Shown here piece by piece: positions 38,990 to 63,171 of a stretch of DNA of 64,000 nucleotides. A program made the translations under genes and the position numbers. The DNA is taken from the NCBI GenBank assembly GCA_001872575.1, contig MNWP01000006.1:10679-74678 (forward strand), read 5' to 3'. Under the pieces are notes generated by a model, which saw nothing but the letters and a program-made list of their open reading frames with translations, did no database searches and was not told the DNA's origin. Origin of the DNA: Candidatus Peregrinibacteria bacterium CG1_02_54_53. Its GTDB lineage: Bacteria; Patescibacteriota; Gracilibacteria; Peribacterales; Peribacteraceae. How positions within the stretch are numbered: the stretch's first letter is position 1; every line of letters starts with the position of its first letter.

Positions 38990-39080
38990 CTCTCTATGGA
39001 CACCAACTCCTAGGTCAGGTTGAGGCTTTGGAACCTACTCAGAGAGCCCACCACGGTTCTAACTTCGTACAGTCTGGCGC

Positions 39081-39612
39081 ACCATTCGTCCCGCAATTGC
39101 GGGACTCATGGCAAGCCATATGTTGCATGTCTACATCCTTGAACTGGAAAATGACTCCTATTATGTCGGTCATACCGACAACCTACGACGAAGACTGATG
39201 GAGCATGAACAAGGAATTGCATGTTCACATACGAAAAAATATCCGATGAAGCAACTCCTTTGGTCAGAGTCACAGCCAAATCGGAATGCTGCTCGCATGA
39301 GGGAAATTGAGATCAAGGGTTGGCGACGCAAAAAGAAGGAACGTCTCTGGCAGAAAGTGAGCTTGCCCTGACGAGAGAAGCGAGGAAGGGTCTCCCCCAC
39401 GGCACCATTCGTCGGCCCTTTGGGCCTCCTCATGGTGAACCATTCTACTGCTTCTCTTGAATAAGCCCGATATTTCCTACAAGCAGCCGAGGCGAATGAC
39501 AGTGAGCGTAGCGAAGCGAAGCCGGGCATATCGATTTCAACTGAAACCAGATAGTAAGCTGTTCTATCCTCGTTACCATTCGTCCCGCAATTGCGGGACT
39601 CATGGCAAGCCA
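39081..39612. repeat. Three CCA-TTCG-hairpin-CTCA-TGG units plus a duplicated tRNA 3' end
   Basis: accattcgtcccgcaattgcgggactcatggcaagcca at 39081 and 39575, a variant at 39404; gtctcccccacggcacca at 39390-39407 is identical to 27194-27211. Confidence 0.88.
39120..39371 (+). CDS. Stand-alone GIY-YIG nuclease
   Basis: HVYIL, YYVGHTDNLRRRLMEH, AARMREIEIKGW. Confidence 0.92.
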   Translation: MLHVYILELENDSYYVGHTDNLRRRLMEHEQGIACSHTKKYPMKQLLWSESQPNRNAARMREIEIKGWRRKKKERLWQKVSLP

Positions 39613-39645
39613 CATGTTTCATGTTTACATTCATTCACTCAATAG
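39602..39645 (+). pseudogene. 5' remnant of a second GIY-YIG gene
   Basis: atggcaagccacatgtttcatgtttacatt (MASHMFHVYI) parallels the start at 39108 and is cut off at the convergent gene. Confidence 0.6.
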
Positions 39646-41021
39646 CTCAGATCATCCAATAACAGGTACTGCTCGCCGTTCTGTTCCGCAATTTCTTTGC
39701 GTTCGCGGTATTTCTCAATGAGAGGAGCAGACAACTCAAGCACGCGCAGCAGAGGCTCCACATTTTCTCTATATTGCGCAGAGATAGCTGGAGGACGGAT
39801 TTCAAAGGGAATGGTTTCAATAGGAGTGAGTGTGCTGTCTGGGTTGAGTTGCAGAAGGTGGAAGTCCCCGGATTGCATTGGATGTAATTGATTTTCGTAC
39901 CAGAAGGATCGCAGTGCTTCTCGAATACCCGTTTGTTCAATGGCATTGAAGGACTCTACCTTAATGACACGCCTAAAGTGCAGGAAAGCAGCATCAGGAT
40001 CTTCGAAGAGGAATGCAAATATTCGGGTATTCTGCTCGCGTGGGCCGGTCATTGCCTCAATGGTTTGCACAGGGAATCCTTGTTTTTGTTTCAAGAGTGC
40101 GATGGAACCGAAAGGAATATTGGTCTCTCCGTTGAAAAAGCTCTGTTGCAGGATGATTTTTCCCGACAGTGTGTGATAGGCATGATCGGTAAAATTCGAC
40201 GAGAGTATTTCGTAGGCTCCGGTACGCAGGTGATACCGCACTGTCCCCCAGTGATTGCGATCAAGTACACTGAAGAGAAGCGTCTGATTGTCGATGAAAA
40301 ACGGCGAAAAGTGGAGTTGCTCAGAATCGAATGAGGGGGCAGAAAGTGTGCGACTGTCCCAGCTGAGCGTATCAATAAGTGTAATGCGTGAAAGCGTGTT
40401 ATGGCTTAAGAGAGCAAGGGACATTTCTGTCGGAGAAAGAACGATTGTGTGTTGCATAGGGATACCCAACCTTTCAAAAAGTTGTTCTGGCGAATACCAT
40501 TCTTCCCTCGCCGGAAGGGAGATATTTTCGATTTCTCCACATTCAGAATATCGAACATGAAGATGTGGATGATCCTCTTCGTCCGTAAGGAAGTAGACAA
40601 AGTTGGTATCACGACTGAGGTACACGAGTGGACTATTCTCTTCGTCCGTAAGCAGCTTGTAGTTGTACGGAGATCCCATATCTTGTACATGTGCCTGGTT
40701 GCCAGAACCGATGAGCGTTGCTCTCGGCGAAACAAGGCGAAGTTCTGTGGAATACTCGTTGCTACTTTGCAGTATTTTTCTTGAGTACACCAGTCCTGTT
40801 CTAAACGTATGAGTGGCATAGACGTCCTGGTCAGTGCCTTTCCGAAAGAGCAATGCCTGCAATGTTACTTTAGCCCGGATTTCATTTGGATCGTTGACAG
40901 GCTGCATCAGTGATGAAATCAGAACGAACGTTGAATATGCGAAAGCGCACAAAAGAACAACACATACGATCACATGTTTCCAGGTGCGGAACACGGCCAA
41001 GATGTATGGGGGCACACGCAT
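39639..41021 (-). CDS. Hypothetical membrane-anchored beta-rich protein
   Basis: N-terminal TM; 460 aa. Confidence 0.75.
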   Translation of the reverse strand: MRVPPYILAVFRTWKHVIVCVVLLCAFAYSTFVLISSLMQPVNDPNEIRAKVTLQALLFRKGTDQDVYATHTFRTGLVYSRKILQSSNEYSTELRLVSPRATLIGSGNQAHVQDMGSPYNYKLLTDEENSPLVYLSRDTNFVYFLTDEEDHPHLHVRYSECGEIENISLPAREEWYSPEQLFERLGIPMQHTIVLSPTEMSLALLSHNTLSRITLIDTLSWDSRTLSAPSFDSEQLHFSPFFIDNQTLLFSVLDRNHWGTVRYHLRTGAYEILSSNFTDHAYHTLSGKIILQQSFFNGETNIPFGSIALLKQKQGFPVQTIEAMTGPREQNTRIFAFLFEDPDAAFLHFRRVIKVESFNAIEQTGIREALRSFWYENQLHPMQSGDFHLLQLNPDSTLTPIETIPFEIRPPAISAQYRENVEPLLRVLELSAPLIEKYRERKEIAEQNGEQYLLLDDLSY

Positions 41022-59155: not shown

Positions 59156-59258
59156 GGGAAGGTGAGGAAAGTAAGGAAGGTAAGGAAAGGCAGGAAAGTA
59201 AGGAAGGGAAGGAAGGGCAGAAAAGAAAGGAGAATGAAGAAAGCAAGGATAAGGAAAA
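59156..59258 (+). repeat. Purine-rich 9-nt-period repeat (GTAAGGAAR); 30-bp copy at 60161-60190
   Basis: gtaaggaaaggcaggaaagtaaggaaggga is identical at 59180 and 60161. Confidence 0.85.
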
Positions 59259-60050: not shown

Positions 60051-60201
60051 GTGCAATGGAGTTATTGGTTTTATAAGGGCGTGATCATCAAAGAGGCCTG
60101 CCCGGCGTAGCTCCGCAGTTGTAGAGAGGAGTCGGGTGGCGAAGGAGATGTAAAAGATAAGTAAGGAAAGGCAGGAAAGTAAGGAAGGGACATTACCAAT
60201 T

Positions 60202-60410
60202 TGTCATGCTGAGGAATCCCGCGTAGCGGGATGTCTCGAAGCATGAGTACAAGACGATTAGCTCTTTCTTAGAAGTAACCACCCGCTTGTCACACTGAGG
60301 AGCCCGCAGGGCGTCTCGAAGTGCGACCGAGAGTTCCTCGGAGCCACTGCCCGTTGACGGTGTCGCCCTTCGAGACGTCGTCCCCCGGGACTCCTCCTCA
60401 GGGTGACACC
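60202..60410. repeat. Three REP-like GTCA..CTGAGG-hairpin-GTCTCGAAG units
   Basis: Units at 60202-60246 and 60288-60327, plus an inverted unit at 60359-60410. Confidence 0.85.
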
Positions 60411-60715
60411 TTTATCTGTTTCTTGAAGGCAGTTCTTCTTCGGGAGAGCTCCGGAAGTTGTTCATATTCTCGTCTGATCAACGCCTCTTTCTTCTTTCTG
60501 CTCCATCTCTTGACTTTCTTTTCCCAGCTGATCGCCTCGTTGATATCCTGAAAATCAGCAAGGTAGACCAGTTTTACGGGTCTTCGGCTATGTGTGTAAC
60601 TCGAAGGGTCCAGACCATCACCGTGTTCCGTGAGTCTTCGCTCATCATCATTCGTTACGCCGGTGTAGTAGCTCCCATCTGAGCAACGAAGAATATAAAC
60701 GAAGTATTCATACAT
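60398..60715 (-). CDS. Stand-alone GIY-YIG nuclease
   Basis: FVYILRCSDGSYYTGVTND..RRLTEH, RRPVKLVY, AISWEKKVKRWSRKKKEALI. Confidence 0.95.
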   Translation of the reverse strand: MYEYFVYILRCSDGSYYTGVTNDDERRLTEHGDGLDPSSYTHSRRPVKLVYLADFQDINEAISWEKKVKRWSRKKKEALIRREYEQLPELSRRRTAFKKQIKVSP

Positions 60716-60918
60716 GGTTCCATTTTCCTGCGATATCTTTGAGTGTCTTTGTTCGTCTGCGAAGACATTTCTTTCGGATACGTATCTTTGGCTTCACAAA
60801 GCCAAAATCAGACGTTCCATACCATCGCAGAACGCCCGCGTTTTCTCATGTCTCCCGCTGGATGAAATGCGCAAGGAGCTTTACATAGCCAAAAAGTCGG
60901 GTAGAGTGCAGGTTTGGA

Positions 60919-63171
60919 ATGACTGATCTCCCCGCCAGTATCGAGGCGTATCTTACGGATGCGGGCTTCTCTGCCACCGAGATCCTGGTGCTCAAGAAAC
61001 TTCTTGAGGGCGAGGCGCTTACATTGCGTGAACTTGCTGCGAAAACAGGTAAATCGACCGGGGTATTAGATCTTGCAGTGAAGAAACTGCTGCAGCGTCG
61101 CATCATCAGTCGCGAGATGGTGAATGACACACCCAAGGTATTGCTCAAGTCGCTCAACGCCGTTATGCAGTGGATGCAGGATGATACGGAACAGAAACTT
61201 AAAGCCATGAAGAGTCGCGCACAAGACTTCGAGTCGTTCATCAATTCTCTCGAGCGGGAGAGTAGGCGGCCCGGGATGGAACACTTCGAAGGGGAAGAGG
61301 GTATCAAGAAGGCGTATCTTAAACTTCTTGATCTTGGCGCGAAGGAGTTTCTGCACTACCGGCCCATAACAACAAAGGAGGAGGAGGACCCGCTTCGTGA
61401 TTTTCGTGTGCAGTATTTTCGTGCGCGGTACAAGCGCGGCATCTTTTCCAGAGTGTTGGCGCCTGAACATTCTCTCGGTCGCAGATTTCAATCGCGAGAT
61501 CCCTTCGAGTATCGCGAGACGCAGCTGGTGCCCGATGCCGTGTTTCCCATCACGTTCGAGAAGATCATCGCCGGCGAGACGGTGGCCTGCTTTAACCATG
61601 CGGAACAGCGCGCATGCATTCTTAAATATCCTGAGTTGGCGCAATGTGAGCGAACCGTATTCGAGCTTCTGTGGCGCCGCGCCAAAGAACCGGCAAGTCA
61701 GCCGCAGACGGTAGCGGTGGCTCTTTCGCAAACACCAGAGTCCTTCATCCCTTTGAGCACGCGATCGCTCTCAAGCCTGCGGGAGTTCTTTTTGAGTAAG
61801 AAGAGTGTGGTGATCTTTCTGATGGGTGCGGTGCTGGCTGCAGGGGTCACGTACGGGCTGTGGAGGCATACGTACAATCTGAATCGGGAACGAGTTAAGG
61901 AGCGGGCCATGGCCATCGCCGCGACGGCTGCCATGGAGTTTGACGTGCGGGATATCGATCAGCTTCGTACGAAGGAGGATGTAAAGAAGCCGGAATTCAT
62001 GAAGCTCGTGACGCACCTGCGCGAGATCAAGACGCGCAATGAGAACATCCGATTCGTCTACATCGATCGTCCGGCAGAGGCGGAGGGTGCGTCGTGGGAG
62101 GTAGTGGCGGATGCCGATTACGGCACGCCGGATGATGATCTGAACGGGGACGGCATCATCGAGGATTTCGAACAGCTCACCATGCCCGGACAGGTGTATC
62201 CGCACGTGGATCCGTTATTTCAAGAGAGGTTACAAAAACCGGCGGCAGATTTTCTCAGTGATGAATGGGGAGAGTATTGCGATGCATCTGCCCCTATTTT
62301 TGATGCTCAGGGCCATGCGGTGGCGGTGCTTTTCGTTGATATCGATCTGCAGCAGGTCCGTGATCTTACTTCACAGTCGTTCAAGGTGGTGTATGCCTTC
62401 CTTGGCTTATTTCTCCTCTTTGTCTTCATCCGTCTCGCGGCCTTCAATCGGCCGCTTTTCTTTGAGTTGCTGAAAATTTTTCGGTCCAAGACGGTGCTTT
62501 CGGTGCTGGGGCTGTGTGCCGTTATCGCCCTTGGAGTGACGTATGGGATGTATCGGTACACTTTAGGTTTGATGAAAGAGCAGGTGGGACAGCGGTTGAT
62601 GGCAATTGCCACAACGGCAGCTGTAGAGATTGATGCGAAAGATCTGGAGCCCCTTCGATTCGCGCGTGATATGGAGAGATTGGAATACCAGAGGGTATTT
62701 AAGAAACTTAATGAGATTCGGGATAGAAACCCCGATAGTCACATTATGTATGCCTATATTTTCCGGCCAACATCTGATCCCACTCTCTGGGAATTTGTAG
62801 CAGATGCAGATTCGAATTATGACATCCCACTCCTGTCGGGGGATCATAATGGCGACGGAGTGATGGATGAGGGGGACGAGAATATTTGGCCTGGAGTGAT
62901 CTATTATGCAGGAGGGCAAAAATTCGTTACTGAGGGCCTAAAGAAGCCCATGGTCGAAGACTTTGCCAGTGATCAATGGGGAACGTTTTTGACAGGAGAT
63001 GCCCCAATTCGTGATGAAAATGGAGATGCAGTTGCCATCCTAGGGTTGGACATGAATGTTACTGATTTATATCGTGAGGTGAAAAGTAAATATGATCCAT
63101 ACATGTGGTTCTTTTCGGTCTTCGGAGTTCTGATGATTGTGGGAGTGGGTTTTTCTTTTAGGAAACGGTGA
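60919..63171 (+). CDS. TrmB-family regulator fused to two membrane-anchored extracytoplasmic sensor domains
   Basis: N-terminal wHTH, FEGEEGIK linker, four TM helices, duplicated Cache-like domains (DEWG..API.D..G..VA.L..D). Confidence 0.8.
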   Translation: MTDLPASIEAYLTDAGFSATEILVLKKLLEGEALTLRELAAKTGKSTGVLDLAVKKLLQRRIISREMVNDTPKVLLKSLNAVMQWMQDDTEQKLKAMKSRAQDFESFINSLERESRRPGMEHFEGEEGIKKAYLKLLDLGAKEFLHYRPITTKEEEDPLRDFRVQYFRARYKRGIFSRVLAPEHSLGRRFQSRDPFEYRETQLVPDAVFPITFEKIIAGETVACFNHAEQRACILKYPELAQCERTVFELLWRRAKEPASQPQTVAVALSQTPESFIPLSTRSLSSLREFFLSKKSVVIFLMGAVLAAGVTYGLWRHTYNLNRERVKERAMAIAATAAMEFDVRDIDQLRTKEDVKKPEFMKLVTHLREIKTRNENIRFVYIDRPAEAEGASWEVVADADYGTPDDDLNGDGIIEDFEQLTMPGQVYPHVDPLFQERLQKPAADFLSDEWGEYCDASAPIFDAQGHAVAVLFVDIDLQQVRDLTSQSFKVVYAFLGLFLLFVFIRLAAFNRPLFFELLKIFRSKTVLSVLGLCAVIALGVTYGMYRYTLGLMKEQVGQRLMAIATTAAVEIDAKDLEPLRFARDMERLEYQRVFKKLNEIRDRNPDSHIMYAYIFRPTSDPTLWEFVADADSNYDIPLLSGDHNGDGVMDEGDENIWPGVIYYAGGQKFVTEGLKKPMVEDFASDQWGTFLTGDAPIRDENGDAVAILGLDMNVTDLYREVKSKYDPYMWFFSVFGVLMIVGVGFSFRKR

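Follow-up and report, generated by a model that had tools for sequence, protein, structure and literature searches.

A small GIY-YIG nuclease gene and TGAG/CGAA hairpins in a Peregrinibacteria genome: a candidate Ssn-like pair

Why does the gene of a very small nuclease lie next to short hairpins whose stems vary in sequence while two tetranucleotides within them stay the same? The question is raised by a stretch of 64,000 nucleotides (the window, in what follows) from Candidatus Peregrinibacteria bacterium CG1_02_54_53 (assembly GCA_001872575.1, contig MNWP01000006.1, positions 10,679 to 74,678 of the forward strand), in which a gene for a 105-residue single-domain GIY-YIG nuclease is followed directly downstream by three hairpin units. 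Each unit near this gene has the tag GTCA and, after it, a stem of 3 bp whose two complementary arms enclose TGAG, an inner part with gtct at its end, and CGAA. An earlier note on this DNA had likened the arrangement to repetitive extragenic palindromic (REP) sequences and their RAYT transposases, with a different enzyme. We found a specific and conserved pairing of this kind of small GIY-YIG gene with TGAG/CGAA hairpins, and we lean towards reading it as an Ssn-like nuclease with its DNA sites. The host is an ultra-small groundwater bacterium with a genome of 1.37 Mb in 42 contigs, and its closest named relatives, judged by the 105-residue gene, are Candidatus Peregrinibacteria/Peribacteria.

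Linkage of the hairpins to GIY-YIG genes

The strongest support for the pairing is its linkage across genomes. A scan of one genome per species returned 545 relatives of the 105-residue protein, and the best 80 of these 545 loci (314 kb) were examined; they encode proteins of 53-74% identity from at least seven phyla, the hosts being Peregrinibacteria, Bacteroidota (most), Nitrospinota, Nitrospirota, Kiritimatiellales, Ignavibacteria, Saccharibacteria, an Acidiferrales genome and others. Strictly defined units number 138 in these loci, compared with 0-4 in nine controls, and a definition with a 3-bp stem gives 274 units, compared with 0-8 for six control tetramer pairs. A unit lies at most 250 bp upstream or at most 300 bp downstream of the gene core in 75 of the 80 loci, and only 30 units are found farther out, in 208,711 bases. 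The arrangement follows an orientation rule, with an upstream unit on the gene strand in 62 loci, a downstream unit on the opposite strand in 41 and both in 33, so that the gene and its inverted flanking units can be described together as a cassette. In many relatives, the open reading frame (ORF) extends into the unit downstream, and the protein then has a tail such as ...PSTSSG.

The same loci define the unit itself. When TGAG-N4-7-CGAA sites are picked without any pairing requirement, 230 of the 330 have three complementary flanking positions, and 19 different triplets occur there. A 5′ GTCA, followed in the alignment by C or T, stands on 196 of the 230 paired units, and a 3′ TGAC partner is present in only 14. 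Thus, the unit is a structure-defined hairpin with compensatory stem changes and an asymmetric tag, unpaired and oriented, on its 5′ side. A nearly identical unit of 25-27 nt (GTCACCC TGAG CTTGT CGAA GGGTGA) is found in Chitinophagaceae and in Nitrospinaceae loci, and a Sphingomonas plasmid encodes a homologue, 44% identical to the window protein, that also has TGAG/CGAA units.

The window holds a second small GIY-YIG gene, which encodes 83 residues; of 401 genomes sampled from the phylum, 159 have a relative of its product. Thirty loci around such relatives contain 34 units (0-4 in controls), with at least one unit in 16 of the 30. The pattern GTCANNNTGAG-N4-7-CGAA is present in 172 of the 401 genomes; the richest genome has 92 copies and the host 17, while the reversed pattern is found 0-2 times per genome. 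A relative of the second protein occurs in 44 of the 60 genomes with at least five copies of this pattern, compared with 115 of the 341 others (odds ratio 5.4, Fisher p 1.7e-8, with kinship ignored and the lists transcribed by hand). Among the 16 exceptions, a search with the first protein, run on these genomes only, found a relative in ten, so that the co-occurrence table is unchanged.

In the host genome, requiring at least 4 bp of perfect outer stem gives 61 units, compared with 0-16 for nine control tetramer pairs, and a stricter definition leaves 43 units, against 1-14 for 14 control pairs. Among TGAG-N4-7-CGAA sites picked without a pairing requirement, all three flanking positions are complementary in 58 of 379, compared with 2 of 282 for a control pair. 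A loose definition, allowing G.U pairs and one mismatch, was dropped as too noisy (118 units against 10-82 in controls), and placing the units as genic or intergenic by crude ORF calls proved unreliable; inspection by eye puts the clear GTCA units 10-70 nt away from the ends of ORFs. Doublets that have no gene are dispersed in the genome, for instance GTCAYCC-TGAG-ctctgt-CGAA-... followed by an inverted GTCATGG unit 12-51 nt later. Eight of the nine adjacent pairs in which both members carry GTCA are convergent (+,-), with spacers of 12-51 nt, and are thus REPIN-like inverted doublets with the orientation of cassette ends.

The family PF01541 has 13 matches in this genome, namely UvrC and 12 small genes, which split by C-terminal motif into type I (K-x-W-x-R-x-x-K-x-x-L-I; five genes, including both in the window) and type II (E-K-Y-L-K..G-x-R; seven genes). 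Of the 43 strict units, five are at most 300 bp away from a small GIY-YIG gene, compared with an expectation of 0.33, an approximately 15-fold enrichment reached in 1 of 2000 permutations; the check that the earlier note had proposed, enrichment next to GIY-YIG genes, thus came out in its favour in the host's own genome. Under the 3-bp-stem definition, nine units adjoin four of the five type-I genes and none of the seven type-II genes. The 5′ tags vary by paralogue, with three GTCA tags at the 105-residue gene, two CTTG and one TTCA at the second gene and ATGA at a sister pair on contigs C5 and C17.

An alternative is that these are ordinary REP-type hairpins, moved by a Y1 (HUH) RAYT-like transposase, that build up around genes of horizontal origin and low expression, as these nuclease genes would be. 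The genome does contain two Y1 transposase genes of family PF01797 (C34:72-434, E=1e-33; C13:21314-21586, E=2e-10), and the doublets resemble REPINs. However, neither Y1 gene is flanked by TGAG/CGAA units and both have other hairpins, that of the C34 gene being a different terminal hairpin, whereas the TGAG/CGAA hairpin stands beside a GIY-YIG gene in nearly all of the 80 loci, across many phyla, and beside type-I but never type-II paralogues. We therefore regard this explanation as very improbable. The RAYT-like Y1 gene on C13 has a small hairpin of its own (cagcagcagccc-TTCG-tggctg) on both sides, in direct orientation, and represents a separate candidate enzyme-repeat pair.

Genes, units and tRNA ends in the window and the host genome

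Table 1. Small GIY-YIG genes and TGAG/CGAA units in the window
Feature	Positions	Strand	Description
GIY-YIG nuclease gene, single-domain	60398-60715	minus	ORF, 105 residues, ends KVSP, type I C-terminal motif
Unit 1	60203-60246	plus	GTCA tgc TGAG gaatcccgcgtagcgggatgtct CGAA gca
Unit 2	60289-60327	plus	GTCA cac TGAG gagcccgcagggcgtct CGAA gtg; one A.C mismatch further out
Unit 3	60359-60410	minus (gene strand; TGAG strand)	GTCA ccc TGAG ...gtct CGAA ggg
Possible decayed upstream unit (low confidence)	60744-60767	minus	TGTCTT cgcaga CGAA ca AAGACA; without TGAG; seen by eye only, missed by all scans
Second small GIY-YIG gene	39120-39374	plus	83 residues, type I, ends KVSLP
Unit directly upstream of second gene	39082-39115	minus	CTTG cca TGAG tcccgcaattgcggga CGAA tgg
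Unit downstream of second gene	39403-39437	minus	TTCA cca TGAG gaggcccaaagggccga CGAA tgg
Third unit near second gene	39573-39608	minus	core identical to the 39082-39115 unit
Clean unit	2767-2788	plus	atcc TGAG cgaagc CGAA ggat; no GTCA tag
Weaker unit	2713-2764	plus	one G.T pair; no GTCA tag

The 105-residue protein matches PF01541 (E=6.5e-16) as the sole family above the Pfam cut-off, and PF01541 is likewise the sole such family for the 83-residue protein. Its closest solved structures, over residues 3-83, are 1zg2 (UPF0213 BH0048, E=1e-17) and 1ywl (UPF0213 EF2693, E=4.8e-14), which places it close to the UPF0213/YhbQ proteins. It ends only 25-30 residues past the catalytic core, and the Pfam search found no second domain and no DNA-binding domain beyond the 80-residue core; neither GIY-YIG protein of the window matches an NCBIfam family. 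Slx1-type GIY-YIG proteins carry a C-terminal zinc-finger domain after the GIY-YIG domain and work with Slx4. An Slx1-type identity, to which the earlier note had pointed, was rejected, given that no second domain was found and the best solved matches are the two UPF0213 proteins.

The units of the window are collected in Table 1. The earlier note had described three TGAG/CGAA palindromes downstream of the 105-residue gene, the nearest holding its stop codon, and the same loop with compensatory stem changes at 39081-39612 and 2704-2789. Both descriptions are borne out by the sequence, the stop codon (60398-60400) being the TGA within the TGAG of unit 3. It had also remarked that the gene at 39120 likewise ends in CCCTGA. 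The second gene does end in gCCCTGA, but CGAG follows and its TGA lies outside any unit, so that the common ending looks coincidental and does not characterise the system.

Units 2 and 3 form a convergent doublet with a spacer of 42 nt. Unit 1 has the inner part ga-ATCCCGC-gta-GCGGGAT-gtct and, when folded alone as DNA, is clearly stable (-14.2 kcal/mol; z = -5.1 and -5.2 for the two strands). The folding energies of units 2 and 3 alone are unexceptional (z = -0.6 to -2.2), and their membership in the hairpin family therefore rests on the common pattern. An Rfam search of the whole window at gathering thresholds returned one tRNA only and no family at the hairpin units.

Several features of these units deserve mention in their own right. 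The inner hairpins ATCCCGC-gta-GCGGGAT (60216-60236, in unit 1) and TCCCGC-aatt-GCGGGA (39089-39104) resemble the published stem of the NTS and SRM hairpins, which are taken up below; the copy of SRM from Azospirillum with which they were compared reads ATCCCCGC-gaag-GCGGGGAT. Given this likeness, one hairpin class may be nested inside the loop of another. GCGAAGC is a very stable DNA mini-hairpin. The units at 2713-2788 are set among GCGAAGC-like runs, and runs of GAGCGAAGC / CGAAGCCGAAGG containing GCGAAGC, at 2735-2790 and 39497-39525, accompany the units.

The surroundings of the second gene recall tRNA ends. On the plus strand, its upstream unit is preceded by gcgcACCA, which is like a tRNA 3′ end, and its downstream unit, whose DNA fold has z = -3.5 and -3.8, is again preceded by ggcACCA. 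The third unit lies 200 bp beyond the second gene, and after it comes a decayed repeat of that gene's initial ~40 bases; together (39573-39650) they form a partial tandem duplicate of the left end of the second cassette, which suggests repeated insertion at one site. The GIY-YIG gene at C15:2978-3208 is likewise trailed by a copy of a unit and a decayed copy of the gene start.

Similar associations are found elsewhere in the host genome. Five of the 12 small GIY-YIG genes adjoin tRNA or transfer-messenger RNA (tmRNA) genes, and one more lies within a 23S rRNA insertion. TTCG directly follows the 3′ CCA in 10 of the 46 tRNA and tmRNA genes, and the full unit CCA-TTCG-hairpin-CTCA-TGG follows eight of the 46, tmRNA included, often with GCAAGCCA after it (compare 39076-39115 and 39397-39437). 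In addition, partial duplicates of tRNA 3′ ends and of gene starts lie next to cassettes. Several TTCG-trailed tRNA genes are succeeded by a duplicate of the 3′ part of the tRNA, in which a CTTG-tagged unit interrupts a T-loop-like GGTTCGAA...TCC. Two type-II genes are of interest in this regard. The one inside the 23S rRNA gene insertion is C42:2416-2685, and an inverted repeat (ccccgcact ... agtgcgggg) closes this insertion and would lengthen an rRNA helix. The other, C26:5650-6045, has a reading frame that continues into the 5′ half of the gene for tRNA-Ile(GAU); this tRNA half also occurs as two partial copies upstream of the GIY-YIG gene.

These observations could be explained by a free-standing endonuclease of the homing type that cuts double-stranded DNA, for example at tRNA gene ends, with the hairpins acting as signals at the transcript level (terminators, or processing or stabilising structures) that travel with the cassette and that the nuclease ignores. 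The genes at tRNA, tmRNA and 23S rRNA genes, the partial duplicates beside cassettes and the units that directly follow tRNA genes all fit such an enzyme. In contrast, upstream and downstream units are mutually inverted, so that a transcript would have TGAG/CGAA on one side only, the other side bearing the complement, in which the mismatches are between pyrimidines. Moreover, the asymmetric tag is conserved without a pairing partner, T runs rarely trail the paired units of the 80 loci (TTTT in 11 of 230, CTTT in 9 of 230), gene-less doublets are dispersed, no Rfam family matches the units and the protein has no DNA-binding domain beyond its catalytic core. In our opinion, this alternative is distinctly unlikely.

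What the nuclease may do at the hairpins

Recent work by Chenal et al. (Nat Commun 2025; PMC11893778) reports that small GIY-YIG nucleases termed Ssn bind hairpin repeats bordering their own genes and cut single-stranded DNA (ssDNA) beside them, so that the earlier note's statement that no characterised mechanism was known is outdated. According to that paper, SsnA of Neisseria meningitidis is a 94-residue single-domain GIY-YIG protein of CDD family cd10448, which binds the NTS hairpin as ssDNA only, and on one strand, and cuts upstream of the hairpin, whose conserved 5′ flank is required. Ssn homologues in many bacteria are bordered by related hairpins, the SRM.

By comparison with these enzymes, we favour, with moderate confidence, a reading in which the 105-residue protein belongs with the Ssn-like single-domain GIY-YIG nucleases and has the TGAG/CGAA hairpins as its cognate DNA sites, at which it would nick ssDNA, the whole forming a mobile cassette with non-autonomous doublets. 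The nuclease probably recognises the hairpin. The sequences themselves show the linkage of gene and hairpin, its orientation rule, the compensatory stems, the asymmetric tag, the insertion at this site and the homology with an SRM-flanked protein of Ssn type; hairpin binding, ssDNA cutting and, above all, the nuclease-driven copying of cassettes and doublets are activities that we infer. A unit that becomes single-stranded during replication, transformation or repair would fold, and the nuclease would read three features, namely the GTCA tag on the unpaired 5′ side, the short stem, whose sequence is free, and the constant TGAG/CGAA segment; by analogy with SsnA, the enzyme would then nick the same strand near the unit. 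In short units, TGAG and CGAA may pair as T-A, G.A, A.G and G-C beside a loop of 5-6 nt; for the long units of the window, the predicted DNA fold has GAG(G) paired to (T)CTC, with two bases bulged out. Gene and inverted flanking units would make up a compact cassette of ~0.5 kb, which would have been inserted between two genes in the host lineage and moved between phyla, and the scattered gene-less convergent doublets would be its non-autonomous derivatives. As the tags face outward on opposite strands at both ends, cuts 5′ of each unit would bracket the element; this makes a mobile element an attractive reading, and the steps of movement are a proposal only.

The site of the 105-residue gene bears on this. 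A gene for a PilT-type ATPase lies beside the cassette in the window, and in six genomes of the family that belong to other genera, the orthologue of pilT stands directly before the orthologue of the 750-residue gene that starts at 60919, with gaps of about 110-470 bp. No GIY-YIG gene is present at 11 orthologous loci (1.5 kb each), and the spacer between the two genes in the window, cassette included, measures 1763 bp; the cassette is thus a lineage-specific insertion at this site. The closest orthologous locus (L115) has a lone GTCA-tagged unit in the same spacer. Among 12 public groundwater or aquifer sequencing runs, none of them of RNA, contigs from four cover the cassette with 0-1 differences, and contigs from other places or organisms in other runs match unit 2 alone, with 3 differences. 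No contig joining across the cassette was seen in these runs, a result that is uninformative on excision because contigs drop rare variants. As a separate observation, a purine-rich repeat of 28 nt (AAGTAAGGAAAGGCAGGAAAGTAAGGAA) has nine copies in the genome (at most 4 mismatches), two of which, at 59178-59205 and 60159-60186 in direct orientation, bracket ~950 bp of extra DNA beside the cassette. A further copy precedes the GIY-YIG gene on C17 by ~250 bp, and other contigs in four of the groundwater runs match this repeat too.

It is also conceivable that the nuclease has been domesticated, cutting incoming or exposed ssDNA at hairpins, as Neisseria SsnA does, and limiting transformation or recombination at marked loci, while the hairpins spread by other means. 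Such bacteria may take up DNA, the pilT-type gene adjoins the cassette and the cassette is nearly invariant in the four groundwater runs. This function is, moreover, the sole one that the sections of PMC11893778 drawn on here report from experiment for the family. On the other hand, the insertion is lineage-specific, protein identity is 53-74% across phyla, a genome of this small size holds twelve divergent paralogues and cassettes sit at tRNA ends and within 23S rRNA, all of which gives the system a selfish look rather than that of a housekeeping function. We consider domestication unlikely, and it is compatible with a mobile element, as the two are not mutually exclusive.

Several results weigh against the Ssn-like reading that we favour. 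The SRM consensus (searched as HGTCWYN(0-2)YYVSBRHN(0-5)WNVSBRGN(0-2)RNCYNB) is not enriched in the host genome, with 11 matches against 13 in the reversed sequence and 7-10 in shuffled sequences and none near a GIY-YIG gene, and 404 kb of related loci (L001-L110) hold one match against two reversed. Stem mismatches, used as a guide to the strand that folds, gave no answer (G.T 5 and A.C 7 in the genome, 6 and 10 in related loci). Most units are remote from nucleases, 38 of the 43 in the host genome lying more than 300 bp from any GIY-YIG gene, and the 105-residue gene itself has no clear upstream unit to match the three downstream. The 12 small paralogues have identities of 20-51%, with one pair at 71%, and thus show no sign of recent copying of the gene-bearing cassette within the genome. 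The presence of the two Y1 transposase genes is a further point of this kind. Of the 60 hairpin-rich genomes, six (completeness 75-99%) have no relative by either query, and the 115 hairpin-poor genomes do hold a relative of the second protein.

If the pairing is functional, the one known family of site-specific ssDNA nucleases would be extended by a large second branch with a well-defined new recognition hairpin and with hosts (candidate-phyla bacteria, Bacteroidota and Nitrospinota) outside the published motif. It would also offer new cutting specificities for ssDNA tools and a testable candidate for the origin of very short palindromic repeats in tiny genomes, and the pattern of tags by paralogue in one genome would be a natural specificity panel. 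A bolder proposal, which we hold to be doubtful, is that a GIY-YIG nuclease of 80-105 residues is the sole protein of a new class of mobile elements, nicking folded single-stranded hairpins at outward GTCA tags and moving the cassette and the doublets within genomes, and the cassette between phyla, often to tRNA 3′ ends, with paralogues reading their own tags (GTCA, CTTG, ATGA). Movement of the elements by the nuclease, if true, would mean transposition by an enzyme of unprecedentedly small size.

Comparison with known systems

REP elements and REPINs are reportedly associated with RAYT transposases, as described by Bertels and Rainey. Like that system, the one described here has a single-copy enzyme gene flanked by palindromes thought to be its targets, dispersed intergenic inverted hairpin doublets and compensatory stem changes. 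However, the REP/RAYT enzyme is a HUH/Y1 transposase and not a GIY-YIG nuclease, its hairpin has a GTAG-type head instead of a GTCA tag with TGAG/CGAA, and REP/RAYT is vertically inherited, whereas the TGAG/CGAA cassette is found across phyla. Strand-transfer activity is, to our knowledge, not known for the GIY-YIG fold. Of the earlier note's comparison, the REP/RAYT-like layout and the gene-hairpin pairing stand, given the inverted bounding hairpins, the gene-less convergent doublets and the conserved linkage, and recognition of the repeat remains likely; that the nuclease spreads the repeat is unproven, both here and in the sections of PMC11893778 drawn on. Elements of the IS200/IS605 type, which the Ssn work also discusses, likewise act on folded ssDNA hairpins at their ends, with strand-specific, oriented ends. 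Their catalytic fold differs from GIY-YIG, and their ends are two different hairpins on one strand, in contrast to the inverted copies seen here.

The UPF0213/YhbQ proteins (1zg2 BH0048 and 1ywl EF2693) share the size and the single domain of the 105-residue protein, and the names of these two structure entries state neither a function nor a DNA partner. A literature search joining UPF0213, YhbQ and GIY-YIG found no paper pairing these terms, and none was found for GIY-YIG with "repetitive extragenic palindromic". Searches with four hairpin 12-mers gave, among the matches listed, papers unrelated by title, and in a search for follow-ups of the Ssn work since 2024, only the original Ssn paper was relevant among those listed.

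The closest parallel is with the Ssn nucleases and their SRM. Both systems combine a single-domain GIY-YIG protein of ~90-105 residues (94 in SsnA; the 105-residue protein and, somewhat smaller, the 83-residue one here) with repeats that bound the gene, often as inverted doublets, that are dispersed in tens to hundreds of copies and that carry an oriented 5′ GTCWY tag. The unpaired 5′ flank reads CGTCAT in NTS and GTCWY in SRM, and GTCA occupies this place in the paired units of the 80 loci. Flanking on both sides, as in Ssn, is seen as oriented units in the 33 loci of the clade mentioned above; at the 105-residue gene, there are the three downstream units and the doubtful upstream remnant. 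The authors of the Ssn work themselves point out a layout like that of an insertion sequence and a parallel with REP (PMC11893778).

As a positive control, the SRM pattern recovered four SRMs, in two inverted doublets, around a gene for a 97-residue GIY-YIG protein on plasmid AZO_p3 of Azospirillum lipoferum 4B, whose genome is one of the 29 from which SRM was defined (PMC11893778). This protein is homologous, over its full length, to both window proteins (35% identity over 94 residues, E=1e-15, with the 105-residue protein; 42% over 76 residues with the 83-residue one) and has the K-x-W-x-R-x-x-K-x-x-L-I motif in common with them. Since the Azospirillum gene has SRM while the Sphingomonas homologue described above has TGAG/CGAA, the class of hairpin changes with the branch of the protein.

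The differences are equally clear. Unlike the GC-rich YYVSBR stem of SRM, TGAG/CGAA units have a 3-bp stem of free sequence and the invariant TGAG...CGAA; unlike Ssn, the window protein is nearer to UPF0213 proteins; and unlike the SRM genomes, TGAG/CGAA hosts include ultra-small bacteria and Bacteroidota. According to PMC11893778, the 29 genomes include no candidate-phyla bacterium and represent Bacteroidota only by Chlorobaculum; for six species of Bacteroidota with relatives of the window protein, Supplementary Data 4 reports SRM at 0.27-2.07-fold (no enrichment) and mixed homologue flags. Judging from the sequences, the system thus appears to be an Ssn-like pair of nuclease and hairpin with a different and very widespread hairpin and a UPF0213-like branch of the protein, set apart from the known one by the published SRM consensus.

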